Assembly: GCA_035644475.1 (NCBI GenBank)
Contig: DASQOL010000004.1
Span: forward strand, 1,288 to 65,287
Direction: 5' to 3'
Length of the DNA: 64,000 nt
From: Gammaproteobacteria bacterium
GTDB taxonomy: Bacteria; Pseudomonadota; Gammaproteobacteria; Steroidobacterales; Rariloculaceae
Of the stretch, positions 1-12,063 are shown piece by piece (within the stretch, counting starts at the first letter, position 1; the number at the start of each line of letters is the position of its first letter). The notes beneath the pieces are model-generated. The model made no database searches and had not been told where the DNA came from. It saw nothing but the letters and a program-made list of their open reading frames with translations. The position numbers were made by a program, and so were the translations under genes.

Positions 1-135
1 CGACGACCAGAGCAAAGCCTGAAGCACTCGCCGCCCGCTCGCAGAGGCGCCGCACGCGGAACAACTGCTTGGCACCGTGCGCCGGCCCTGCTAGCATCCG
101 CGTCCAATACCTCTAACTGGTAGGCTTCCGCCGAC

Positions 136-2610
136 GTGCTGCTTCACGACCTGATCGTGGCGTTGCGACGGATCGCGCGTCAGCGCTTCTACAGCGCGCT
201 GAGCGTCTCGGCGCTCGCGTTCGGCCTCGTCTGCTTCATCGCCACCTACCTGCTCGTGAGCTACATCCGCGGCTACGACCGCCACTTCGCGAACGCCGAC
301 CGCACGTACGTCATCGCCCAAAGGGAGCGTGCCGAGGGCGAGGGCTTCGACACGCCGTTCAGCGTGAAGAGCGCGCTGCACTTGGCCGAGCAGCTCAGGC
401 TCGACGTGCCGGAGCTCGCGGCCGTCGCCCGCCGTCAGCAAACGTTCCTGCCGGTGGCGCTCGACGGGCAACCCACGCTGCGCGCGATCTCGTACGTCGA
501 GGCGCCGTTCTTCGACATCTTCGACTTCCTCACGCTCGCCGGCGACGTGCACGGCGCCGCGCAGCCGCGCAGCGCCGTGCTCACCCGCCGCACGGCGCAG
601 CAAATGTTCGGCGACGCCGCCGCCGTCGGGCGAACGATCACGCTCAACGGCAGACAGCGGGTCGACGTCACCGTCGCCGCAGTGATCGAAGACTTGCCCG
701 CCGCGTCGCACCTCGCGCGAGGCTCGCTGTTCGCCAACGGGTTCGACCTGCTCCTGTCGTGGGACGTGTACGAGCTGATCGGCAGGACGCCGTCCGTCGA
801 CAGCTGGGTCCAAGGGCCCGTCTATACCTACGCGCTTCTGCCGGAGGACGGGTCCTTCACCGTCGCGCAGCTCGACGATCGCTTCCCCGGAATCGTCGAG
901 CGCAACGTGCCGCAAAACGTGCGCGCGGCAAACGCGATCGAATTCCGGGCGCAGCCGGTATCCTCGATCGCGGCGACGGCTCTCCAGCAGGAATTCGAGG
1001 GATTCAACAGCACGCCGTGGCGAATCGACGTCCTCGGCACGCTGCTGATCTTCGCGGCCGGGATCCTCGTGATCGCCTGCCTGAATTTCGTGAATCTCGC
1101 CACGGCGCAGTCGAGCGGCCGCACGCTCGAGATCGGCACGCGCAAAGCCGTCGGCGCCGATGCCTCGCTCGTGGTTCGGCAGGAGCTCGTGCAGACCGCG
1201 ATCCTCGTGACCCTGGCCATCGCTCTCGCTCTGGCCGCAATCCCGCTTGCCACGAAACTGCTCACGGGCCCGTGGCCGATGGCGTTCGCGCTGCCGTGGC
1301 GCGAGCCGCGCTTCTGGATCTTCCTCGCGGCGCTGCTCTCAGGCGTGACCCTCGCGGCCGGCCTGTACCCCGCGCTGGCAGTCGCGCGGATCCGTCCCAC
1401 CGCGGCGCTGCGCCTCGGCACCGCCCGCGCGGGGCCGAAGGTGTTGCGCACCGTGCTGGTGGGCGCGCAGTTCGCCAGCGCGAGCTTCCTCGTCGCGCTC
1501 GTCGTGGTGCTGCTCGCGCAACGCAACGACTTGCGCGAGACGCTGCTCGGCCGCTTCGCGGACCCGTATGCGGTCTTCGCGATCGCGCCGACGGCGCAAG
1601 TGCCCGATCGCGAGGTCCTCGCAAGCGAGCTCGCGCGCGGGCCGGGCATCAAGGGCGCAACCTATATGACCATTCCGCCTTGGACCGAGGGCCCGATCGT
1701 GCCGGTGAGCCGCGCCGTCGAGGAGCAGGCGCCGCGCTTTCCGCTGGAACTGCAACCCGTGGGCTACGACTACTTCAAGCTGCTCGACGTTACGGTCGTC
1801 GCGGGACGCGTCTTCGAGCGCGAGCGCGCCGACGACGTCATACCGCGCGGCGAGCAGGCTTCCGCGGCGCGGCAGGGCCGTCCGACCGTCGCGGTGCTCG
1901 ACACCACGGCCGCGCGCGCGCTCGGCTGGCCGAACGCCGCGGACGCCGTCGGCGAGATCGTCTACCGCTCCGGGACTCCGACGGAGGTCATCGGCGTGGT
2001 CGAGCCCATCACGATGCAGATCCGCGCGAGGGACAGCGCGGGCGCGGTGTTCACCTTGGATCCGCCGGTCAGCAATATGTGGCTCGCCCGGCTCGACAAG
2101 AGCAACGTGGCCGCCTCGCTCGCGCACATCCGCGACACGATGCAAGCGGTCAGCCCGAGCCGCGCACCTCCCTCCCTCGGTTTCTTGGATCAGATGTTCG
2201 AAAGCGCCTACTGGGCGTTCGCGCTGATCAACCGCGTGCTCGGCGCGCTCGCCGCCTTTGCGATCGCGATCTCTGCCGTCGGGCTGCTCGGCATGGCGAG
2301 CTACATGACGCAGCGGCGCACGCGCGAGATCGGCGTGCGCAAGACGCAGGGCGCGTCGCCGGGCGCGATCGCGCGGTTGCTGCTCGCCGAGTTCTCGAAG
2401 CCCGTGGTGGTCGCGAACGTGGTCGCGTGGCCGTTCGTCTTCATCGCCGCGAACGCCTACCTCGGAGTGTTCACCAAGCGGATCGCGCTCACGCCGCTGC
2501 CGTTCGCGCTTGCGCTACTTGCGACGCTGGCGCTCGCGTGGGTCGCGGTCGGCGCACGCGTCTGGTGGGCCGCTTCGTTGAATCCCGCGAGGGCCCTGCG
2601 GCACGAGTGA
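136..2610 (+). CDS. MacB/FtsX-family ABC-type permease, duplicated form (824 aa)
   Basis: Uninterrupted ORF with a GTG start. The N-terminus MLLHDLIVALRRIARQRFYSALSVSALAFGLVCF is a typical first TM of MacB/FtsX permeases. There are two FtsX-type blocks (GTRKAVGADASLVVRQ... and GVRKTQGASPGAIARLL...), each followed by TM helices. Third-position GC bias is strong. Confidence 0.85.
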   Translation: MLLHDLIVALRRIARQRFYSALSVSALAFGLVCFIATYLLVSYIRGYDRHFANADRTYVIAQRERAEGEGFDTPFSVKSALHLAEQLRLDVPELAAVARRQQTFLPVALDGQPTLRAISYVEAPFFDIFDFLTLAGDVHGAAQPRSAVLTRRTAQQMFGDAAAVGRTITLNGRQRVDVTVAAVIEDLPAASHLARGSLFANGFDLLLSWDVYELIGRTPSVDSWVQGPVYTYALLPEDGSFTVAQLDDRFPGIVERNVPQNVRAANAIEFRAQPVSSIAATALQQEFEGFNSTPWRIDVLGTLLIFAAGILVIACLNFVNLATAQSSGRTLEIGTRKAVGADASLVVRQELVQTAILVTLAIALALAAIPLATKLLTGPWPMAFALPWREPRFWIFLAALLSGVTLAAGLYPALAVARIRPTAALRLGTARAGPKVLRTVLVGAQFASASFLVALVVVLLAQRNDLRETLLGRFADPYAVFAIAPTAQVPDREVLASELARGPGIKGATYMTIPPWTEGPIVPVSRAVEEQAPRFPLELQPVGYDYFKLLDVTVVAGRVFERERADDVIPRGEQASAARQGRPTVAVLDTTAARALGWPNAADAVGEIVYRSGTPTEVIGVVEPITMQIRARDSAGAVFTLDPPVSNMWLARLDKSNVAASLAHIRDTMQAVSPSRAPPSLGFLDQMFESAYWAFALINRVLGALAAFAIAISAVGLLGMASYMTQRRTREIGVRKTQGASPGAIARLLLAEFSKPVVVANVVAWPFVFIAANAYLGVFTKRIALTPLPFALALLATLALAWVAVGARVWWAASLNPARALRHE

Positions 2611-2638
2611 CGGGGCGCGCGCACCGGGTGCCTTGGCG

Positions 2639-3166
2639 CTACGGCGGCAGCACCAGCTCCATCCCGAAGACGCTCGACGGGCGCGGCCCGCTCTGCGCGA
2701 TGATTTCGATGCCGTCGTCGCGCACGAGCCAAACTTCGATCGCGCCTGCCTCGAGATAGGCAGCGACCTTCTCGTTCATGTCCGCCACGGTGTTCGACGG
2801 GGACAGGACCTCGATGCAGATTTCCGGTGCGTTGACGAAAGGCGTGGTCAAGCGGTGACGCACGATGAAATCGTGCGAAGCCCACGCGACGTCGGGCACG
2901 CGCACGCCGATCTGCGTCTCGATCGAGCATTCGGTAAAGGTCGTGCCGTCGGGACGCAGCCTGCGCAGCTCGCCCGCAATGAATGCTTGGAGCATTCCGT
3001 GGCGATTGCTGCCTGGACTCACCTCGATCGCGCCCTTTTCGTTGAGCTCGACTTTGTACGGGATCGCTGCGAGCAGCGGATCTCCGATCATCTGCAGCCA
3101 GCGCTGGCGCAGCTGCGCACGCGAGAGTCGAGGAGAAGTGGCTCGTTCTGCGGTTGTGGCGTTCAT
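2639..3166 (-). CDS. Uma2-family (DUF820, restriction-endonuclease-like fold) protein
   Basis: Shows the Uma2 pattern: YKVELNEKGAIEVSP, then HG..Q, VPDVAW, and EICIEVLSPSN...K...YLEAGAIEVWLV (PD-(D/E)xK-like core). I chose the ATG at 3166. The ORF track extends to a GTG at 3223, which is also possible. Confidence 0.7.
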   Translation of the reverse strand: MNATTAERATSPRLSRAQLRQRWLQMIGDPLLAAIPYKVELNEKGAIEVSPGSNRHGMLQAFIAGELRRLRPDGTTFTECSIETQIGVRVPDVAWASHDFIVRHRLTTPFVNAPEICIEVLSPSNTVADMNEKVAAYLEAGAIEVWLVRDDGIEIIAQSGPRPSSVFGMELVLPP

Positions 3167-3277
3167 GTTTCGGATTCGGGGCCGAACGGCTGATTCGAAT
3201 GTACGCCGATCCGCATACGGCACAAGCGCAGAAACGGGCTATTCGGCCGCGAAACGCGTTGCCCGAGGCAGCTCTGC

Positions 3278-3401
3278 GATAGGGGCCTGCGGCGATCGTC
3301 ACGGCGACGGACGAGTTTTCAACAATCGTCCGGTATTTCCGGACGGGATCGGCGATTTCGTCCGTCGACGTGACGATCCTGCGGAGGCACCCCATCAGCT
3401 C
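3278..3401. repeat. Structured intergenic repeat, copy 1 of 2 (nested hairpins)
   Basis: About 124 bp, roughly four of five positions identical by eye to 7295-7418. An outer inverted repeat GATCGTCAC...GTGACGATC and GACGGACGA...TCGTCCGTC encloses a central hairpin CGTCCGG-TATTT-CCGGACG. It lies in a divergent promoter region, upstream of the + strand permease gene. Confidence 0.6.
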
Positions 3402-3525
3402 ACTGTTCTCTATCGCGCGCGAGTGGCAATACGCGCAGCGTCACCGGACGGTCACCGGGGCGCAGGCCGATCTGGCCGGCGGCCCTGCTTGACCGAGCCC
3501 GCGCCACCCGATCATCCTGCGCTCC

Positions 3526-4737
3526 GTGAGAGCCCTCGACACAACGTGGATGTCGCTGACCGCGCTGCGGCGCTACCCGCTGCGCACCGCGATGCTGCTG
3601 CTCGCGATCGCGATCGGCGTGGCCGCGGTGGTCACGCTCACGGCCGTGGGCGAAGGCGCGCGCCGCTACGTGAGCGGTCAGTTCGCGTCGCTCGGCACAC
3701 ACCTTCTTATTGTGCTGCCGGGCAGGGCCGAGACGGCCGGCGGCGGCATCCAGGGCCTGCTCGTCGGCGAAACCGCGCGCGAGCTCACGCTGCAAGACAC
3801 AATCGCGCTCACGCGCAGCGCGGCCATCAAGCAGGTCACGCCGCTCGTGGTCGGCGCCGGCACGATCTCGTGGCGCTCGCGCGAGCGCGACATCACGGTG
3901 CTCGGCACGAGCGAGCCGATGGCGGCGATCCAGCACTGGGCCCTGGAGCAAGGCCGCTTCCTGCCGCCGAGCGACCTCGACGTCGCGACGCCGGTGTGCG
4001 TGCTCGGCTACACCGTCGGCAAGGAGCTGTTCGACAACGCGAGCCCGGTCGGCGAATGGCTGCGCATCGGCGACTCGCGCTGCCGCGTGGTCGGCGTGCT
4101 CGCGAAGCAGGGACTCGCGGGCGGCTTCAACGTGGACGAGACCGTGACGCTGCCGATCGCGAACGCGCAGCAGATTTTCAACACGTCGGCGGTGTTCCGG
4201 ATCCTCGTGGAGGCGAGCAGCGCGGACTCGGTGCAGGCCGCGAAGCGCTACATCACCGCCGCGATCAAGCTGCGGCACGCCGGCGAGGAGGACATCACGG
4301 TAGTCACGCAGGACGCGCTCGTGTCCACGTTCAACTCGATCTTCGGCATGATCACAGCGGGGCTCGCGGGAATCGCCGCGATCAGCTTGGTGGTGGCGGG
4401 CGTGCTGATCATGAACGTGATGCTCGTCGCGGTGAGCCAGCGCACCAACGAGATCGGCTTGCTCAAGGCCGTGGGCGCGCGCAATCGGCAGATCGTCGCG
4501 CTGTTCCTCACCGAGGCGTGCTGCCTGTCGGCGCTCGGTGCGGCGGTCGGCTTAGGCATTGGCCAAGGCGGCACGTGGCTGCTGCACGCCGCGTTCCCGG
4601 TGCTCGACTTCGCGGCGCCGCCGTGGGCGTCCGCGTCGGCTGTGGGCGTGGCGGTGGCGAGCGGCCTCGTGTTCGGCATCCTGCCGGCGCGGCGCGCGGC
4701 CGGGCTCGACCCCGTGGCCGCGCTCGCGAAGCGGTGA
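3526..4737 (+). CDS. MacB/LolCE-type ABC permease (single FtsX module, 403 aa)
   Basis: N-terminal TM (RTAMLLLAIAIGVAAVV), a large periplasmic-type domain, and a C-terminal FtsX block (NEIGLLKAVGARNRQIVALFLTEA) with 3 TMs. The start could alternatively be the ATG at 3550. Confidence 0.85.
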   Translation: MRALDTTWMSLTALRRYPLRTAMLLLAIAIGVAAVVTLTAVGEGARRYVSGQFASLGTHLLIVLPGRAETAGGGIQGLLVGETARELTLQDTIALTRSAAIKQVTPLVVGAGTISWRSRERDITVLGTSEPMAAIQHWALEQGRFLPPSDLDVATPVCVLGYTVGKELFDNASPVGEWLRIGDSRCRVVGVLAKQGLAGGFNVDETVTLPIANAQQIFNTSAVFRILVEASSADSVQAAKRYITAAIKLRHAGEEDITVVTQDALVSTFNSIFGMITAGLAGIAAISLVVAGVLIMNVMLVAVSQRTNEIGLLKAVGARNRQIVALFLTEACCLSALGAAVGLGIGQGGTWLLHAAFPVLDFAAPPWASASAVGVAVASGLVFGILPARRAAGLDPVAALAKR

Positions 4738-4744
4738 CGCGCCG

Positions 4745-5944
4745 ATGCGCAGCCAAGACTTCGTAAAGCTGATCGCGCAATCCGTGGCCGCGCACCGGAT
4801 GCGCAGCGGGCTCACCGCGCTCGGCATCGGCATCGGTGTGACGGCCGTGGTGCTGCTCACGTCGATCGGCGAGGGCTTGAACCACTACATCGTCGACCAG
4901 TTCACCCAGTTCGGCACCACGACGCTCGCGGTGCAGCCGGGCAAGTCGAGCACGTTCGGGGTCGCGCCCGGCGTGCTGAACTCGACGCGGCCGCTGTCGC
5001 TCGGCGACGCGGAGGCGCTCGCGCGCGCGCCGCACGTGCTGCACTCGGTGCCGATCGTCACCGGCAGCGGCTCGATCGAGGGCAACGGCCGCGAGCGCAC
5101 GGTGAGTGTCTACGGCGTGGGCCCCGAGTTCGACAAGGCGTTCAAGTTCAACGTGAAGAGCGGCACGTTCCTGCCGCCCGACGAGCTCGAGCGGGCGCGG
5201 CCCGTGGTGGTACTGGGCTCGAAGACCTACGCCGAGCTCTACGGCACGAGCAACGCGCTCGGCGAGCGCGTGCGCATCGGCGGCGAACGCTACCAGATCG
5301 TCGGCATCATGGAGACCAAGGGCGATATGGTCGGCGTGAACCTCGACGACACCGTATATATTCCGGCCGCTCGCGGGCTCGAGCTCTTCAACCGCCAAGG
5401 CCTGGCCGAGATCGACGTGCTGTACGCGGAACGCTCGAACGTCGCGGAGGTCGTCGACGGCATCAAGCGGGTCCTGCTCGCGCGCCACGGCGGCGAGGAC
5501 TTCACGATCGTCACGCAGCAGCAGATGCTCGACGTGCTCGGCTCGATCATCGGCGTGCTCACGCTCGGCGTGGCGGCGCTCGGCGGCATCTCGCTGCTCG
5601 TGGGCGGCGTGGGCATCTTCACGATCATGACGATCGCGGTGCGCGAGCGGACGCAGGAGATCGGGCTGCTGCGCGCGGTGGGCGCGCGGCGGTCGCGCAT
5701 CGCGCAGCTCTTCGTAGGCGAGGCGATGCTGCTGTCGGCGATCGGCGGGTTTGGAGGTCTCCTGCTCGGCGTGGCGATCGTGGTGCTCACGCACTTCGCG
5801 CTGCCGTCGATGCCGGCGCGGATCTCGCCGCTCTACGTGGTGCTCGCGCTCGTGATCGCGGTGGCGATTGGGTTGATCGCCGGCGTGCTGCCGGCGCGCA
5901 GCGCCGCGCGGCTCGAGCCGCTCGACGCGCTGCGCACGGAATAG
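4745..5944 (+). CDS. MacB/LolCE-type ABC permease, paralog of the preceding gene (399 aa)
   Basis: I chose the in-frame ATG at 4745 (MRSQDFVKLIAQSVAAHRMRSGLTALGIGIGVTAVV), 8 nt after the upstream stop. The track ORF start at 4559 is an over-extension across the upstream gene. The FtsX block is QEIGLLRAVGARRSRIAQLFVGEA. Confidence 0.85.
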   Translation: MRSQDFVKLIAQSVAAHRMRSGLTALGIGIGVTAVVLLTSIGEGLNHYIVDQFTQFGTTTLAVQPGKSSTFGVAPGVLNSTRPLSLGDAEALARAPHVLHSVPIVTGSGSIEGNGRERTVSVYGVGPEFDKAFKFNVKSGTFLPPDELERARPVVVLGSKTYAELYGTSNALGERVRIGGERYQIVGIMETKGDMVGVNLDDTVYIPAARGLELFNRQGLAEIDVLYAERSNVAEVVDGIKRVLLARHGGEDFTIVTQQQMLDVLGSIIGVLTLGVAALGGISLLVGGVGIFTIMTIAVRERTQEIGLLRAVGARRSRIAQLFVGEAMLLSAIGGFGGLLLGVAIVVLTHFALPSMPARISPLYVVLALVIAVAIGLIAGVLPARSAARLEPLDALRTE

Positions 5945-6124
5945 CGCGACGCGAATGTCCGCTTCGGTCAGTTGTTCGCGTGGCGACTCAACTTCTGGCG
6001 ATTGCGGTCCCCGGAATGTCGTCTTTCGATCGGAACGGGACGATCAGAGAAACGCCGTCAGCGCAAAAGCGCGCCGTCAGTCAGCCGCGGCGGAGGCGCT
6101 ATCCCTTGCCGGTACATCGTGCTG

Positions 6125-6757
6125 TCATTGATCCCGTCGTCCGCCGTGCCGCTTTCGGAACTCGAGGAATGAATAGAGCCGCACCCCGAGCGCGGCCACA
6201 ACCAGGATCATCGCCACACCAATGACCCAACGGCCCCCGGTCGGCTGCACCAGTGCGGTTACGACCAGTGCCAAACCGCCGACCACGACCACCCGCGCGA
6301 GCAGCCGATGAGTGCGCAACCACACCTCGTCGTCGTGGAACGTCCAAGCGTTGCGTATGCCGATGATCGGGTTCTTCCTGAGCCGGCCCATCCCGTTACC
6401 GAGCACGACGAATGCGACGCCTACCAGAACTGGCGCGAGCAAGCCGTACGGCAGACGGATCCCGCCGCGCTCAATCAAGGTCGCGGCCAAATGCGCGACG
6501 CACAGCGCTGCGACGACGATCTGGGTCAAGCGCAAGTGCTTCCGCACCGAGGACGCACCTGGATCGCCCGGGTAGTGCCGAGTCGTCGTAGCGATCCAGG
6601 CCCAGATCGCGGCGGCGGCAAATGGTGGGAGAAAGACTCCGAGCGCCGGCCACAAAAAACCACGCTCCCGATACAGCGTCACATTCAGCGCAGCTGCCAG
6701 TACGAACGCGGCGCTGACGAGGACGCCTGTCCAGAAATCGATGCGTCGAACTCTCAT
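6125..6757 (-). CDS. SdpI/YhfL-family membrane protein (immunity/signal-transducer-like)
   Basis: Polytopic membrane protein containing the motif RKNPIIGIRNAWTFHDDEVW, characteristic of SdpI-family proteins. Its start overlaps the stop of the upstream ArsR-type gene by 4 nt. Confidence 0.7.
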   Translation of the reverse strand: MRVRRIDFWTGVLVSAAFVLAAALNVTLYRERGFLWPALGVFLPPFAAAAIWAWIATTTRHYPGDPGASSVRKHLRLTQIVVAALCVAHLAATLIERGGIRLPYGLLAPVLVGVAFVVLGNGMGRLRKNPIIGIRNAWTFHDDEVWLRTHRLLARVVVVGGLALVVTALVQPTGGRWVIGVAMILVVAALGVRLYSFLEFRKRHGGRRDQ

Positions 6758-7038
6758 CGCTTTCTCCGTCGCGGTGGCCTAAAAAAATCGACCAGCATCG
6801 CCGATACGTCCTGAACAACGGTCGTGTTCAGCGAGTACACCATCTGCTGCGCACGCCTTTCGCAGCGGATCAGCTCCGCACCCTTGAGCACGTTGAAATG
6901 GTGCGACATTGAGCCGTCTGTCAAATCGAACTCCGCAGCGATTTCACCCGCCGTGCGCGAGCCCTTTTGCAGAATCTTGAGAATCCGGCGGCGGTTCGCA
7001 TCGGCAAGCGCCTTGAAAACGGTGTCAGCCTTGATCAC
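6754..7038 (-). CDS. ArsR/SmtB-family (SdpR-like) transcriptional repressor
   Basis: Sequence FKALADANRRRILKILQKGSRTAGEIAAEFDLTDGSMSHHFNVLKGAELI is a canonical ArsR winged-HTH. It is translationally coupled to the SdpI-like gene. Confidence 0.85.
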   Translation of the reverse strand: MIKADTVFKALADANRRRILKILQKGSRTAGEIAAEFDLTDGSMSHHFNVLKGAELIRCERRAQQMVYSLNTTVVQDVSAMLVDFFRPPRRRKR

Positions 7039-7046
7039 TCGGCGAG

Positions 7047-7072
7047 TGTATTTTGATATCTATCAAAATACA
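7047..7072. promoter_or_regulatory. AT-rich inverted repeat, candidate operator of the ArsR/SdpR-like operon
   Basis: TGTATTTTGATA-TC-TATCAAAATACA has 12-bp perfect arms. It starts 9 nt upstream of the ArsR-type start codon and is strikingly AT-rich against the GC-rich background. Confidence 0.5.
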
Positions 7073-7294
7073 AGAAACGCTTAAGTACCGTCAAGAGACG
7101 AGGCGCCCGCTTCGCACACGACCATCCGCTGAACAAGAGCGTAGGGAGGGACGCCGGCAACCGCGCAAAGAACTGCTCCGCGTCGAGACTCAAAAGATCA
7201 GCTGCGCTGAGTCGGGCGTTTGAGCGCGCCGGAACGTTAACGCGTCGACATCGCCTTGCCGCGACGATGCGCTATCCGCGCCGTGTAACTCGAT

Positions 7295-7418
7295 GATAGG
7301 GGGGCCGCGGAGATCGTCACAACGCCGGACGGTTCTCGAGGATCGTCCGGAATTTCCGGACGGAATCGATGATTTCGTCCGTCGACGTGACGATCTTGCG
7401 GGGGCACCCTACCGGCTC
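7295..7418. repeat. Structured intergenic repeat, copy 2 of 2
   Basis: Same architecture as 3278-3401: GATCGTCAC...GTGACGATC outer pairing and a central perfect hairpin CGTCCGGAA-T-TTCCGGACG. It ends 23 nt before the MarR start. Confidence 0.6.
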
Positions 7419-7440
7419 GCGGCTCTCCGGGGAGCTTCAG

Positions 7441-7959
7441 ATGATCACCGCCGAGGCGGATGACCGGCGTGCAGGCGCACGATCCCGTGCCCTGATGGCT
7501 TCGCGCGCGCGGCTCGCACAGACCGAGCTGATCGAGGAAATCGTAGCGACCGCCGAACGCATCACGGCGGCGCTGTCGTTCGGCGGCGAGCCGATCGTAA
7601 AAACCGACGCGATTTGGCGGTTGCTGACCACACTCGATCGCTCCCCGTACTGCTCGATTTCCGATGCCGCGCGATTGCTGCGCGTCCCCAAGCAGCGCGT
7701 ACACGAAACCGCTCGCAAAGCGGAGCTCGCGGGCCTGGTCGAGCTCGCGGCCAATTCGGACGACCGACGCATCGTCCAGATCCTGCTTACCCGCGCCGGC
7801 CGCTCGCAGATCGCAGCGCGGCGTTCGATCGAGAACCAATGGCGCAACGTGCTGCTGAACGGTCTGGACGAGCATCGCCTAGCGACGACGGTGCACGTGC
7901 TGCGCGTCATTCGGCAGCGCCTGCTGCGCGACGAACGCGAACGCCGCACCCGAGAATAA
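7441..7959 (+). CDS. MarR-family transcriptional regulator
   Basis: Contains the winged-HTH block ISDAARLLRVPKQRVHETARKAELAGLVELAANSDDRRIVQILLTRAGR. I chose the ATG at 7441. The track start at 7369 lies inside the intergenic repeat. Confidence 0.8.
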   Translation: MITAEADDRRAGARSRALMASRARLAQTELIEEIVATAERITAALSFGGEPIVKTDAIWRLLTTLDRSPYCSISDAARLLRVPKQRVHETARKAELAGLVELAANSDDRRIVQILLTRAGRSQIAARRSIENQWRNVLLNGLDEHRLATTVHVLRVIRQRLLRDERERRTRE

Positions 7960-8028
7960 GGTTCCGGCGCCGTTGCGCACGGCGAGTGCTAAGCTGTGAA
8001 GCCGCGAATTGCAGCGACCGAGATTCAC

Positions 8029-8334
8029 ATGAGCCACACCCAGCTTCCGAGATCCACGCGCGCCGTCGCGGCCGCCGCCGTCGGCGCCATGGCCGCGCTC
8101 CTGACGGGCGCGCCCGCTGCGGCCGACGTCGTGCAGGGCACCGTCAAACCCGCCACGGCCAAGGTCGCGATCAAGAACGCCGCCGGCGAGCAGGTCGCCG
8201 AAGTGAGCGGCGGCGCGTTCCAGCTGCGGCTGCCGGCCGGCAAGTTCACGGCCGAGTGCCCCGCGCCCTCGCAGAAGAAGGTCACGTTCTTCAGCCTGGC
8301 GCAGCCCACGAGCGTGAACATCGACTGCTCCTAG
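8029..8334 (+). CDS. Small exported protein, unknown function
   Basis: Signal peptide MSHTQLPRSTRAVAAAAVGAMAALLTGAPAAA, followed by about 70 aa of beta-rich sequence with two Cys. It is co-directional with, and 70 nt downstream of, the MarR gene. Confidence 0.55.
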   Translation: MSHTQLPRSTRAVAAAAVGAMAALLTGAPAAADVVQGTVKPATAKVAIKNAAGEQVAEVSGGAFQLRLPAGKFTAECPAPSQKKVTFFSLAQPTSVNIDCS

Positions 8335-8350
8335 CCCCGGCGCGAACCCC

Positions 8351-9406
8351 ATGACGGACGGAACCGACCGGGCCGAGGCCAAGGCCAAACAGGCCGCGAT
8401 TCACGAGAAGTACGCGTTCTGGATGGACGTGAGCGGCAAGCTCGCGCTGCCGCTCGTCACGGCCATCGTCGCGCTGGCGGGCACGTACCTCACCACCAAG
8501 ATCAACGAGCAGAACAACGTCCGCGAGACCATCAACCAGCGCGAGCAGGCGGAGTCCGCGCTGCGCACGCAGATGTTCCGCGAGCTGGTGAGCCCGGTGG
8601 TCGGCGACTTGGGCGCGAGCGCGACGGCCGACGACAATCGTCCGGAGCGGCTCGCGCTGCTCGCCGAGATGCTCGCGCTCAACTTCCACGAGCACTTCGA
8701 GCTCGGGCCGCTGATGCTCTACGTGGACGAGCTGCCCGGTCAGACGACGCTCAACCGCAACCGCATGCGCTCGGTCGCACGGCGGGTGATCTCGCGGCAG
8801 CTCGCGGTGCTCGGCCCGGCCGCGGCCACGGCCGCGACCGCAACGTGCGGCAAGGAGTCGAGCGACGTCGACATCTGGCTCACGTCCGACGCGTCGGAGC
8901 CGGCCGACAAGCCGCAGGCGTGCCAGATCGCGGGCGAGCCCGACGGCAAGAGCGCGTACTTCGAGTGCAGCAGCGTCGACCGCGCGTCCGAGGTGCTGGC
9001 GCCGTTCACCGTGTCTTCGAAGGACTGCAGGGACCGGCTCACGATTCTGCTCGCCGATCTCGACTGGGCGAACAACAGCGTGCGCGTGGTCGCGACCAGC
9101 ACGCCGCCGTCGGCGCAGAGCACGGCGGGAGCGCAAGCCGACGCGAACACGATCCCCGAGTTCGTCGAGTTCACGCTGTCGCCGTACGCAATGCCGTTCT
9201 CCGACAACACGCTGCTGCGCAGCGGCAACCGGTTCGGGCTCTACGTGCGGCAGATCGAGCCGAGCCGCGAGCCGTGCACGCCGCCCGCCTGCGATCCGAC
9301 GACGCGCCTGATGCGGCTGTCGCTGATCTGGTTCCCGCGCGACTTCATTCCGCCGCGCGAGCGCCCCACCGACTTCGAAGAGATCCGCAAGTCCCTCAAG
9401 CTCTGA
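8351..9406 (+). CDS. Membrane-anchored Cys-rich protein, unknown function (351 aa)
   Basis: One N-terminal TM (LALPLVTAIVALAGTYLTT), then a large domain with 7 Cys by my reading. GC3-rich coding signal. I recognise no family. Confidence 0.6.
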   Translation: MTDGTDRAEAKAKQAAIHEKYAFWMDVSGKLALPLVTAIVALAGTYLTTKINEQNNVRETINQREQAESALRTQMFRELVSPVVGDLGASATADDNRPERLALLAEMLALNFHEHFELGPLMLYVDELPGQTTLNRNRMRSVARRVISRQLAVLGPAAATAATATCGKESSDVDIWLTSDASEPADKPQACQIAGEPDGKSAYFECSSVDRASEVLAPFTVSSKDCRDRLTILLADLDWANNSVRVVATSTPPSAQSTAGAQADANTIPEFVEFTLSPYAMPFSDNTLLRSGNRFGLYVRQIEPSREPCTPPACDPTTRLMRLSLIWFPRDFIPPRERPTDFEEIRKSLKL

Positions 9407-9434
9407 AAATAGGGACAGGTTACTTTTTCGCGCG
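9405..9434. repeat. Half copy (single arm) of the AT-armed hairpin repeat family
   Basis: GAAAATAGGGACAGGTTACTTTTTCGCGCG matches the family arm GAAAATAGGGACATGTTGCATTTTCG. It is wedged between the TGA of the + gene (9404-9406) and the stop of the - gene (9435-9437). Confidence 0.55.
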
Positions 9435-10256
9435 TTAGCGGCAGAAGGTCTGGTTCAGCGTCGCCGCGAGACGCTCGCCGGCGCGCGCGAGACGCTCCGC
9501 GGTGACGCGCTGCGCCGCGGCGACGTACTCGGCATCGAGCACGATCGGCGGCGGCGACTCGCGCAACGCGTACACGGCTCCGCGCAACGCGAGGCTCTCG
9601 GCGGCCCACGCGGCGGGGTCGACATCGCGCGCCGCCTCGTCCACGGACCGCAGGCTCGGCGCGAGCCGTCGCGCGTAACGTTGCGCCGAGAGGCCCGCGA
9701 GATCGATGACGTCCGTATCCCAGAAGCGATGCAGGTTGACGACCGTGTCGCCGTAGCGGACGTCGATCGTGTTGCCGCCCCGGTCCTCCGCTCGGCCCAC
9801 ATGCAGCGGCTGATGCACGTCCACGACAAAGTGCACGAGGAAACGCAGCGCGTCGAGCCGCCGGGCCGCGGGCAGGTCCCGGTTCGCGAGATCGCGCCGG
9901 AAGCGCTCGATCGCTTCGAGCACGTCGCCCTCGGGCGGGTGACGAAATGCCGCGATGCTCGCCCGCGCGGCCGCGAGATCGCCCGCACGCGCGGCGTCGG
10001 CCACGTTCATGAAATGCCACGGCGCGGACTGCCGCCATTCGGGCATGCTCCGCACCGCGTCGGCCCAAACACCGAGCTCCGCGAGCGATTCGCCGCCGCC
10101 GAGCGCCGCCACCTCGGCGCTCGCGCCGGCGCAGAGCCGCGGCCCGGCAAGCAGCCCGGCGATCCGGTGGCCGTCGGGCCCGAATGCACCCGCCCGCGGC
10201 GCCGCAACGACGGCGGCCACGGCGAAGAACCAGAGAAGAAACCCTCGCTTGCTCAC
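9435..10256 (-). CDS. S1/P1-type nuclease (exported)
   Basis: Signal peptide, then FGPDGHRIAG, WHF.N, HFVVDVHQPLH, GGN and NLHRFWD. These are the zinc-ligand motifs of the S1/P1 nuclease family. Confidence 0.85.
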   Translation of the reverse strand: MSKRGFLLWFFAVAAVVAAPRAGAFGPDGHRIAGLLAGPRLCAGASAEVAALGGGESLAELGVWADAVRSMPEWRQSAPWHFMNVADAARAGDLAAARASIAAFRHPPEGDVLEAIERFRRDLANRDLPAARRLDALRFLVHFVVDVHQPLHVGRAEDRGGNTIDVRYGDTVVNLHRFWDTDVIDLAGLSAQRYARRLAPSLRSVDEAARDVDPAAWAAESLALRGAVYALRESPPPIVLDAEYVAAAQRVTAERLARAGERLAATLNQTFCR

Positions 10257-10364
10257 GACGACGCCCGGGCACTGTAGAATCGCGCTCGACTATAGCCGAC
10301 GCTCGATCGCCGGCTCACGCCTCGAAGCCGCGATATTGTTCTTCTTTCTTTGGGGGATCATTAG

Positions 10365-11396
10365 ATGCTCGCGCACCGACACTCGCTCGCACTGCTCGCT
10401 CTGCTGCTCGCGCCGCTCACCGCACAGCTCGCACCGCTCACGCTCAAGGAGCAAGGCAGCTTCTTCGTCGGCGGCGAGAAGAAGACCGTGTCCACGCCGG
10501 CCAACAATTTGGTCCCGGCCCAGACGGGCGAGATCACGGTCAACCAGATGTACGTGCAGTACCAGATCCCGATGAACGGCGACCGGCACCTGCCCATCGT
10601 GATGGTTCACGGCTGCTGCCTGAGCAGCAAGACCTGGGAGACGACGCCCGACGGCCGCATGGGCTGGAGCGAGTACTTCGTGCGCAAGGACCGCTCGGTG
10701 TATCTCGCCGACCAGGTGTCGCGCGCGCGCTCGGGCTTCGACCCGACGGCGTTCACCGACGTGCGCACAGGCAAGACTCCGCCCGCGCAGATGCCGGGAA
10801 TCCTATCGGCGTCGCACGAGATCGGCTGGACCGTATTCCGCTTCGGCCCGAAGTACGGCGAGGTGTTCCCCGACGAGCAGTTCCCGATGCAAGCGATCGA
10901 CGAGTTCTACAAGCAGATGATCCCGGACCTGAACTCGACGCTGCCGCAGAACCCGAATCCCACCTGGACGCAGATGGCCGCGCTCGGCGTGAAACTCCGC
11001 GGCGCCGTGCTCATGGGCCACTCGGAGTCCGGCTTCTTTCCGGAGCAGGCCGCCCTCATCAATCCGAAAGGCATCAAGGGCGTCATCTCGATCGAGATGG
11101 GATGCGTCACGGATTTCGGCGCGCAGCAGCTCGCAACGCTCGCCAAGATCCCCACGCTCATCATGTTCGGCGACCACTTGGGCGACGTGAGCGGCGGCCC
11201 CGCGAACTGGGCGCAGTCGTTCGACACCTGCAAGACGTTCGTCGATCAGCTCAACAAGGCCGGCGGCAACGCCACGATGATGCATTTGCCCGCGCTCGGC
11301 ATCAAAGGCAACAGCCACATGCTGATGCAGGACAAGAACAGCGATAGGCTCGCCGACCTCGTCATCGACTGGATCGACAAGCACGTCGAAAAATAG
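10365..11396 (+). CDS. Exported alpha/beta-hydrolase (esterase-like)
   Basis: Signal peptide, a VMVHG oxyanion-type block, and a nucleophile elbow GHSESG. The stop TAG lies inside the downstream repeat arm. Confidence 0.8.
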   Translation: MLAHRHSLALLALLLAPLTAQLAPLTLKEQGSFFVGGEKKTVSTPANNLVPAQTGEITVNQMYVQYQIPMNGDRHLPIVMVHGCCLSSKTWETTPDGRMGWSEYFVRKDRSVYLADQVSRARSGFDPTAFTDVRTGKTPPAQMPGILSASHEIGWTVFRFGPKYGEVFPDEQFPMQAIDEFYKQMIPDLNSTLPQNPNPTWTQMAALGVKLRGAVLMGHSESGFFPEQAALINPKGIKGVISIEMGCVTDFGAQQLATLAKIPTLIMFGDHLGDVSGGPANWAQSFDTCKTFVDQLNKAGGNATMMHLPALGIKGNSHMLMQDKNSDRLADLVIDWIDKHVEK

Positions 11397-11493
11397 GGAC
11401 ATGTTGCATTTTTCGACGCCGCAGGCTCGGGGCCGGTGGCGCCTCATCGAAAATGCAACATGTCCCCATTTTTCGCTGTCCCCATTTTTCGCG
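11388..11493. repeat. AT-armed hairpin repeat, full copy plus 18-nt arm-end duplication
   Basis: Left arm CGAAAAATAGGGACATGTTGCATTTTTCG (11388-11415), GC-rich core, and right arm CGAAAATGCAACATGTCCCCATTTTTCG (11448-11475). This is followed by a duplicated CTGTCCCCATTTTTCGCG (11476-11493). Confidence 0.8.
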
Positions 11494-11508
11494 AGTCGGA
11501 GGGCAGTC

Positions 11509-12063
11509 TTGGTAGCGACCTCTTCCACGCACCGCGAGCTCGGCATCTCCGCGCCGAATTTCGCGCTGCCGGACTACGCCGGCCGCATCGTCGCGCTCGG
11601 CGACTTCCCCGGCGCGCGCGGGCTGCTCGTGGTGTTCTGGAGCAACCACTGCCCGTACGTGAAGTACATCAAGCGCGCGTTCGCCGAGTTCGCGCGCGAG
11701 TACCAGGAGAAAGGCCTCGCGATCGTCGCGATCAACGCCAACGACGCCGACGCCTATCCCGACGACAGCCCCGCGCAGATGCAGGCCGACGCCGAGGAGT
11801 TCGGCTTCACGTTCGACTATTTGATCGACGAGACGCAGAACGTGGCGCGCGCATTCGACGCCGTCTGCACGCCCGACTTCTTCCTGTTCGACCGCGGCCG
11901 CCGACTCGCCTATCACGGCCAGTTCGACGCGAGCCGCCCGCGCAACAGCGAGCCGATCACCGGCGCCGACCTGCGCGCGGCGGCCGACGCGGTGCTCGCG
12001 GGCAAGCCCCCGCCGCCGCAGCAGACGCCGAGCATCGGCTGCAACATCAAGTGGCGTAGCTGA
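11509..12063 (+). CDS. Thioredoxin-fold protein (redoxin/TlpA-AhpC-like)
   Basis: Sequence LLVVFWSNHCPYVKY...AIVAINAND...PDFFLFD is a typical redoxin-family layout. I chose the TTG start at 11509, preceded by GGAGGG at a 6-nt spacing. The track start at 11401 lies inside the repeat. Confidence 0.75.
   Translation: MVATSSTHRELGISAPNFALPDYAGRIVALGDFPGARGLLVVFWSNHCPYVKYIKRAFAEFAREYQEKGLAIVAINANDADAYPDDSPAQMQADAEEFGFTFDYLIDETQNVARAFDAVCTPDFFLFDRGRRLAYHGQFDASRPRNSEPITGADLRAAADAVLAGKPPPPQQTPSIGCNIKWRS

Follow-up and report, generated by a model that had tools for sequence, protein, structure and literature searches.

We analyzed a window of 64,000 nucleotides (the whole stretch of DNA under study, positions 1288-65287 of contig C4) from assembly G000, which comprises 5.1 Mb in 245 contigs. 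The window carries two 124-bp stretches, at 3278-3401 (copy 1) and 7295-7418 (copy 2), that a first-pass annotation had described as alike in sequence and architecture. Both are present with the motifs quoted for them. A BLAST comparison of the whole genome confirmed the likeness, as the two copies align with 83% identity over 129 nt (E = 4e-30), without large gaps through the whole 124 bp and slightly further. Each lies in a gap between divergent genes, as had been reported. Copy 1 separates a Uma2-family gene (putative restriction endonuclease-like, 2639-3166, minus strand; Pfam Uma2, E = 1.3e-17), which starts 128 nt from the array described below, from two MacB/FtsX-type permease genes on the plus strand. 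Copy 2 separates sdpR and sdpI on the minus strand from a MarR-family regulator gene on the plus strand. The distances given earlier also hold: copy 1 ends 125 nt before the GTG start at 3526 of the first permease gene, and copy 2 ends 23 nt before the regulator gene, measured to its ATG at 7441.

The two permease genes (3526-4737 and an open frame at 4559-5944) both match Pfam MacB_PCD and FtsX. The second gene probably starts near 4740, and its domain begins at residue 83 of the open reading frame. Immediately ahead of the window, an open reading frame of 226 aa (C4:629-1309 of the assembly) groups in BLAST comparisons with ABC-ATPases (UvrA and an ABC_tran protein of the congener G016). Because of this reading frame, the MacB permease cluster (136-5944) may have its ATPase immediately upstream of the window. 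The sdpR (6754-7038) and sdpI (6125-6757) genes were assigned by Pfam and NCBIfam matches and run divergently from copy 2. They were probably inserted between the permease pair and the array, because they are not conserved beside the MarR gene elsewhere. The sdpR promoter region (7040-7095) contains a perfect palindrome, TTTTGATATCTATCAAAA (7052-7069), that overlaps a sigma-70-like TTGACG-18-TATTTT on the minus strand; this palindrome is probably an operator for autorepression by SdpR and unrelated to the array.

The core of each copy is an array of three tandem 23-bp palindromes, GATCGTCmG-N5-CkGACGATC, with centres 30-31 bp apart, or about three helical turns. Written with its alternatives, the unit consensus is (G)ATCGTC[A/C][C/G]-N5-[C/G][G/T]GACGAT(C). 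The 85-bp core of copy 1 (3294-3378) consists of units A (3294-3316), B (3325-3347) and C (3357-3378), whose centres at 3305, 3336 and 3367 give a period of 31 + 31 bp. In the 84-bp core of copy 2 (7312-7395), which has the same architecture, units A (7312-7334), B (7342-7364) and C (7374-7395) are centred at 7323, 7353 and 7384, for a period of 30 + 31 bp. Each array thus reads as six half-sites, ATCGTC[A/C][C/G] and its complement, in alternating orientation, with linkers of 7-9 nt between the palindromes. The half-site parse is identical in 19 three-unit arrays, and arrays of two, three and four units were found in relatives; judged from these arrays, the design is modular and the number of units variable. 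Within a unit, 10 bp separate the centres of the inner GTCCG and CGGAC blocks. The unit length of 23 bp falls within the range of about 16-25 bp expected of a (pseudo)palindrome that serves as a dimer site, and would be compatible with the geometry of a MarR dimer.

The half-sites are not all equivalent. The outer ones read ATCGTCA-N and the inner four ATCGTCCG, a systematic difference, and the eighth base of the outer half-sites varies by lineage, changing symmetrically at both ends. The flanks also mirror each other, over about 16-23 nt in copy 1 and about 25 nt on either side of arrays in general (outward ...GGAGGGGTAGTGT..GCGCAC...). Array and flanks together therefore have a global two-fold symmetry that is not explained by plain repetition of one operator.

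The element had been reported as present twice, which proved too low a count: a search of the genome retrieved six full and two weaker copies. In addition to the two on C4, the full copies are at C199:6559-6641, C114:2485-2569, C95:30302-30385 and C241:10833-10917. The weaker ones are a diverged copy (C57:68841-68931) and a two-unit remnant (C62:8145-8205). All eight are intergenic, one of them upstream of uvrA and another between queE and queC. The copies are 72-83% identical to each other, and the conservation is unevenly distributed. Among the six full copies, pairwise identity is 91% in the half-sites, 48% in the N5 spacers and 36% in the linkers, the last value being close to random for the composition. 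Conserved half-sites amid diverged spacers are, as a sequence pattern, the signature of selection for a sequence-specific binder rather than of neutral decay.

The gene downstream of copy 2 (7441-7959, plus strand, 172 aa) encodes a MarR-family regulator (Pfam MarR_2, E = 1.8e-9, 38 bits against a cutoff of 27), with the recognition-helix region RVPKQRVHETARKAE and an Arg-rich C-terminal tail. Its relatives in the PDB are all MarR proteins (best 3nrv, E = 7e-5), no NCBIfam equivalog matched it, and a search of 5.8 billion proteins found only 28 homologues. To judge from these searches, the protein belongs to a divergent, genus-restricted MarR subfamily. The public gene call (P0001, 196 aa) starts at ATG 7369, inside array unit B/C. 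We place the start at ATG 7441, because the alignments of homologues and a GGGGAG Shine-Dalgarno sequence at 7429-7434 support it, so that the array of copy 2 ends 45 nt upstream of the gene. The same result bears on a leader peptide, which the first-pass annotation had already judged to be unsupported and which we also rejected: the in-frame ATG 7369 lies in the array, is absent from copy 1 and from the homologues, and is a gene-caller artefact, since the homologues start at the position of ATG 7441.

The array is a nearly constant companion of this gene. When we inspected homologous loci, 23 of 24 had an array of two to four units of the same design directly upstream. Among congeners the share was 16 of 17 loci, with the array within about 150 bp upstream in regions read by eye, and among metagenomes it was seven of seven distinct soil contigs, whose proteins are 55-73% identical to that of the window. 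The reading by eye includes distant paralogues whose half-sites (ATTGACAG, TCGRAAG and ATCGACAG) are invisible to a covariance model built from the six full copies of the genome itself. The model, which scores the core of copy 1 at 100.8 bits (E = 1.7e-23) and that of copy 2 at 95.8 bits, matched within 300 bp upstream of five of the ten closest congeneric homologues; by rough estimate the chance expectation is about 8e-18. In several relatives the MarR ATG follows the array by 20-30 nt, which places it within the end of the right flank. No gene of the window other than MarR is syntenic with the arrays of relatives.

Across the 23 genomes of the genus, the model detected arrays in 15, at one to five loci each, and MarR homologues occur in 13. 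Eleven genomes have both, four have arrays only, two have MarR only and six have neither (Fisher p = 0.037). Outside the genus, no array was detected by the model in 79 genomes of other genera sampled in the same order. A MacB permease lies directly upstream of the array and MarR gene in the two closest metagenome contigs (73% and 69% identical homologues), and an ABC/MacB cluster lies beside the MarR gene of G016.

Several of these loci have peculiarities of their own. At one locus (L060, G010:C13, 8176-8496) the gene downstream of a four-unit array is reduced to a 106-aa MarR remnant, which has lost its entire winged-helix domain so that the N-terminal helices run straight into the C-terminal ones; the remnant is a regulator in decay or else a variant limited to dimerisation. 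The genome of the window has a second, paralogous MarR gene of 45% identity (L107, contig C165, upstream of 20362) with its own two-unit array of the ATTGACAG type, and about 110 bp there, comprising the array and the first MarR codons, are tandemly duplicated. Only one further site of this type was found in the genome (C11:5861). Genes with a DUF6152 domain occur within a few genes of the MarR homologue in three metagenome contigs (L159, L168 and L169), one of which also has a nearby Uma2 gene, as in the window. These genes may reflect a weakly conserved neighbourhood.

The half-sites differ between homologous loci, and the differences correspond to those in the recognition helix of the adjoining protein. 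Proteins with an xQxxH/Q helix accompany ..GTC.. half-sites (11 loci) and those with an xQxxR helix accompany ..GAC.. half-sites (L102, L104, L106, L107 and L108); the partial locus L111 was left out of the alignment. One protein with R in the helix (L100) has mixed GTC/GAC half-sites, and PPSAR helices go with TCGRAAG half-sites (L103 and L109). The half-site variants thus appear to track the MarR recognition helix in the expected direction, a correspondence that is confounded with phylogeny and comprises few independent changes. If so, the paralogues across the genus form a natural specificity series for MarR-DNA recognition, H/Q with GTC and R with GAC.

We consider it probable that the arrays are three-palindrome operators of the MarR-family repressor encoded at 7441-7959, with predicted autoregulation and control of the permease genes. 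The element has a MarR_2 gene next to it, consists of palindromes of the dimer type and is conserved upstream of orthologues with co-variation, all of which is looked for in a MarR operator. A shared operator complex was among the candidates first proposed for the element, and it is the one that the constant companionship and the tracking of the recognition helix bear out. Binding and repression, and the promoters that they would affect, are what we infer from the anatomy, conservation pattern, MarR linkage and protein-site co-variation that we observed directly. One MarR dimer would occupy each palindrome, placing three dimers on one face of the DNA. At copy 2, directly before the repressor's own gene, this would result in negative autoregulation. 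At copy 1 the same repressor would control the two MacB-type permease genes, of which the first is the likely target, and possibly also the Uma2 gene on the divergent side; the MacB genes found next to MarR in the two metagenome contigs and in G016 support this link. Repression would presumably be relieved by a ligand or signal. Relief by a ligand is usual for the MarR family.

We could not assign these predicted effects to individual promoters. A sigma-70 consensus scan returned no promoter at copy 1, and the candidates that it gave at copy 2 all point leftward; no convincing sigma-70 promoter could be placed on the MarR or MacB side at either copy. On visual inspection, (C/G/T)TGACG in the outer half-site looks like a -35 box. 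We make no such claim for it, because its distance to TA-N3-T-like hexamers varies between 13 and 17 nt among genomes. Some copies are also poorly placed for classical repression. The copy near uvrA lies 230 bp ahead of the start codon (ATG), outside the 168-bp stretch conserved with the congener G014, and the C57 copy sits between convergent genes, as do about five of 30 arrays in relatives.

Such placements lead to the question of how the arrays came to lie at so many unrelated sites. At least 20 congeners have no array in the region upstream of uvrA or in the queE-queC gap, even at 95% UvrA identity, and we regard the copies at these two sites as lineage-specific insertions on the strength of this comparison. 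In the closest congeners the corresponding gaps have diverged so far that the ends of the insertions could not be defined. No sharp termini, target-site duplications or direct repeats were found at the ends of arrays, and pairing followed outward from the array without gaps is gradually lost beyond about 15-20 nt. Some arrays in relatives are at loosely orthologous places, for instance upstream of the same 438-aa gene in three genomes (G007, G013 and G021). In the queE-queC gap of the closest congener (L138 of G014, 1407-1498) there is a different small repeat, a doubled GGTGTCTGACACC motif, and this gap seems to attract small palindromic inserts. At four other loci (L068 of G007, 8511-10846; L073; L075; L084), genes for a coiled-coil protein of about 107 aa (MEARIARLESDVAHLRTDV...) without a Pfam match lie beside the arrays, as many as four paralogues in tandem.

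Because the flanks of about 25 nt mirror each other, it is the whole symmetric cassette of about 140 bp that would be copied. From the lineage-specific insertions we infer that such copying has taken place, and that the array with its mirror flanks was also carried to other intergenic sites, such as those upstream of uvrA and queC; in this respect the cassette appears to behave partly as a low-copy dispersed repeat. The dispersed copies keep their half-sites and some of their loci are loosely orthologous, and we therefore regard dispersal as something that the operator cassette does, and not as an identity that competes with it. A stronger version of the same reading is possible, although we propose it only tentatively. 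The element may be a portable, dyad-symmetric, repressible promoter/operator cassette in which three MarR palindromes lie between copies of the 5' region of the MarR gene itself, one on each side and facing outward, and which copies itself into new intergenic sites without a transposase of its own. If this were true, every new insertion would bring a neighbouring gene, or the genes on both sides, under the control of one MarR repressor, and the regulon would grow by the spread of a ready-made operator array and not by point mutation. The lineage-specific copies offer a clean case for how complete multi-site operators duplicate to new promoters.

The same observations could be read in another way, namely that we are dealing with nothing more than a small palindromic repeat, non-autonomous and of the MITE, REP or REPIN kind, which spreads through intergenic DNA and whose adjacency to MarR genes and promoters is incidental and without regulatory role. 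A small non-autonomous repeat was also among the candidates proposed from the first inspection. The part of that proposal that is borne out is dispersal: the uvrA and queE-queC copies, present solely in this genome, amount to presence/absence polymorphism at orthologous sites, and the genes next to arrays in relatives (ankyrin, TPP enzyme, GGDEF, PadR, TonB receptor, GlnRS and others) have no common functional theme of the kind that would point to a regulon. The arrays in convergent gaps, the flanks that mirror each other like terminal inverted repeats and the presence of other palindromic repeat families in the genome point in the same direction, as do clusters of seven to eight units in one congener, which are formed by whole elements side by side. 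These clusters occupy single intergenic gaps of G006 (L062, 8410-8722 and 15142-15343; L064, 7741-8094) with 4+3, 2+2 and 2+2+3 units, and the genome, which is 63% complete, yielded no MarR homologue. However, the terminal repeats and target duplications that a mobile repeat might leave were not found, and the many near-identical copies typical of such families are missing as well, with six to eight copies here and one to five loci per congener. A repeat without function would also leave it unexplained why divergence sits in the spacers while the half-sites stay conserved, and why paralogous MarR genes that are 37-54% identical each keep their own half-site variant upstream. We consider a repeat and nothing else to be unlikely, and retain the MarR operator as the preferred explanation.

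The operators could also belong to a different protein, such as the divergently encoded SdpR/ArsR-type repressor or a nucleoid-associated or partition-type protein, with MarR as merely a regulated neighbour. Copy 2 is shared with the divergent sdpR-sdpI pair, and in four genomes, including that of G021 with 98% completeness, arrays occur with no MarR homologue detected, which counts against the MarR reading as well. Yet SdpR, SdpI and all other neighbours in the window are absent from the array loci of relatives, where MarR alone is conserved. The sdpR gene has its own candidate promoter and palindrome, about 240 bp from the array, and the half-site variants follow the recognition helix of MarR, as described above. 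Another binder is thus very improbable.

There is finally the question of whether the element works as RNA. It might form a structured leader at the 5' end of a transcript, such as an attenuator, a thermosensor or a hairpin to which a protein binds, or it might terminate transcription in both directions. The first-pass annotation had described a nested hairpin and listed a cis-regulatory RNA leader among its candidates. The fold itself is sound as a prediction: compared with shuffled controls, copy 1 (-74.7 kcal/mol, z = -8.0) and copy 2 (-70.0 kcal/mol, z = -5.6) are very stable. As a description of the anatomy it does less well than three tandem palindromes, because six alternating half-sites of one motif inevitably fold into such a structure, and we take the nested hairpin to be a geometric by-product and not something selected for as a fold of RNA or DNA. 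Folds of the opposite strands are about equally stable (-72.4 kcal/mol for copy 1 and -63.9 kcal/mol for copy 2).

Positions that are free to vary can separate the two descriptions. In the 19 three-unit arrays, complementarity between linker 1 and linker 2 is 37.1% within arrays and 37.4% in the between-array control, and that between the N5 spacers of units A and C is 44%, compared with controls of 39% that reach a maximum of 47%. The covariation term of RNAalifold was +0.44, which gives no support. In a larger alignment fitted to the model, double changes were found in 20 of 28 pairs and the covariation score exceeded that of all shuffles. These double changes are confined to half-site positions and switch in all three units together, as in L087, where all half-sites read ATCGACAG/CTGTCGAT throughout. 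Such concerted switching is expected of recognition by one protein and would not be demanded by a hairpin. We therefore dropped the RNA structure that RNAalifold and the counts of paired changes had superficially suggested, given that the half-sites switch in concert and that complementarity does not exceed the control where the sequence can vary freely.

Other evidence also speaks against a function as RNA. A scan of positions 1-12000 of the window against Rfam at a permissive E-value returned chance microRNA matches only (best mir-278, 25.1 bits against a gathering score of 55), and no T-tract or terminator-like site was found at the element. It occurs in every orientation and position relative to genes, and a change in unit number from two to four would alter the fold while leaving the logic of an operator unchanged. 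With linkers that vary without complementarity, no Rfam match and two strands that fold alike, the RNA leader is not supported, and we give a role as RNA the least chance of all these readings. The case also contains a caution, as arrays of palindromic protein sites can pass for long hairpins of RNA, showing very strong folding z-scores and what looks like covariation.

Site types known from other systems were compared with the element and set aside. An integron attC site was rejected, since the outer boxes GATCGTCAC/GTGACGATC differ from the core RYYYAAC/GTTRRRY and the element has a conserved, not a variable, centre; the neighbouring genes scanned included no integrase. Like attC, the matS, parS, LexA-box, NrdR-box and Dam/SeqA GATC-cluster motifs did not fit, or the GATC is unconserved in the inner half-sites.

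With the MarR operator as the preferred reading, an anonymous hairpin repeat in an uncultured soil gammaproteobacterium becomes a concrete regulatory prediction: one MarR-type repressor with a defined 23-bp consensus and six to eight candidate target sites, headed by the MacB-type efflux permease pair.

The lambda operators OR1-OR2-OR3 and OL are tripartite phage operators that bind a dimeric repressor. The arrays resemble them in having three adjoining palindromic sites for one dimeric repressor (here predicted) beside the repressor gene, and in having a second tripartite set a few kb away, the two arrays of the window being 4.0 kb apart. They differ in that they lack a phage context, would be bound by a protein of a different fold and are equally spaced, whereas the lambda sites are graded. 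Cooperativity or looping between the two arrays would be purely speculative.

A second comparison is with REP/REPIN, ERIC and Correia elements and with putative mobile promoters, in which promoters or operators are reused (Nijveen, Matus-Garcia and van Passel 2012, PMC3575422). Like these, the arrays are palindromic, intergenic, about 85-140 bp long and located at unrelated loci, with lineage-specific insertions that may bring regulatory information to new genes. Unlike REP/REPIN, ERIC and Correia elements, they number six to eight copies per genome, and no terminal inverted repeats, target-site duplications or REP-type GTAG motif were identified. Their conserved parts are six protein-type half-sites and not a stem, and they are tied to one transcription-factor gene.

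The closest parallels are found among MarR autorepressors. E. coli MarR has sites I and II in marO, MexR has sites PI and PII, and Neisseria NadR has three operators; negative autoregulation through several upstream pseudopalindromic operators is the established norm for the family. For instance, SCO3205, a MarR-family protein of Streptomyces coelicolor with an Arg-rich C-terminal tail, has several pseudopalindromic operators upstream of its own gene and represses its own expression, and for that protein SPR and a crystal structure have validated the kind of comparative-genomics reasoning that we apply (PMC3737563). The system described here shares with such autorepressors a winged-helix MarR gene immediately downstream of palindromic sites, sites that orthologues keep while nearby DNA drifts, additional genomic sites that form a small regulon (here predicted), a link to an efflux-type transporter and, as in SCO3205, the Arg-rich tail. 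It differs in its three (range two to four) equally phased 23-bp palindromes with a strict 30-31-bp period, in the dyad symmetry of the whole array and in its divergent, genus-restricted protein, whose binding is predicted. Most likely, then, the arrays represent an ordinary kind of gene switch, a MarR-family operator, that is unusually regular and modular and tends to be copied to new sites.
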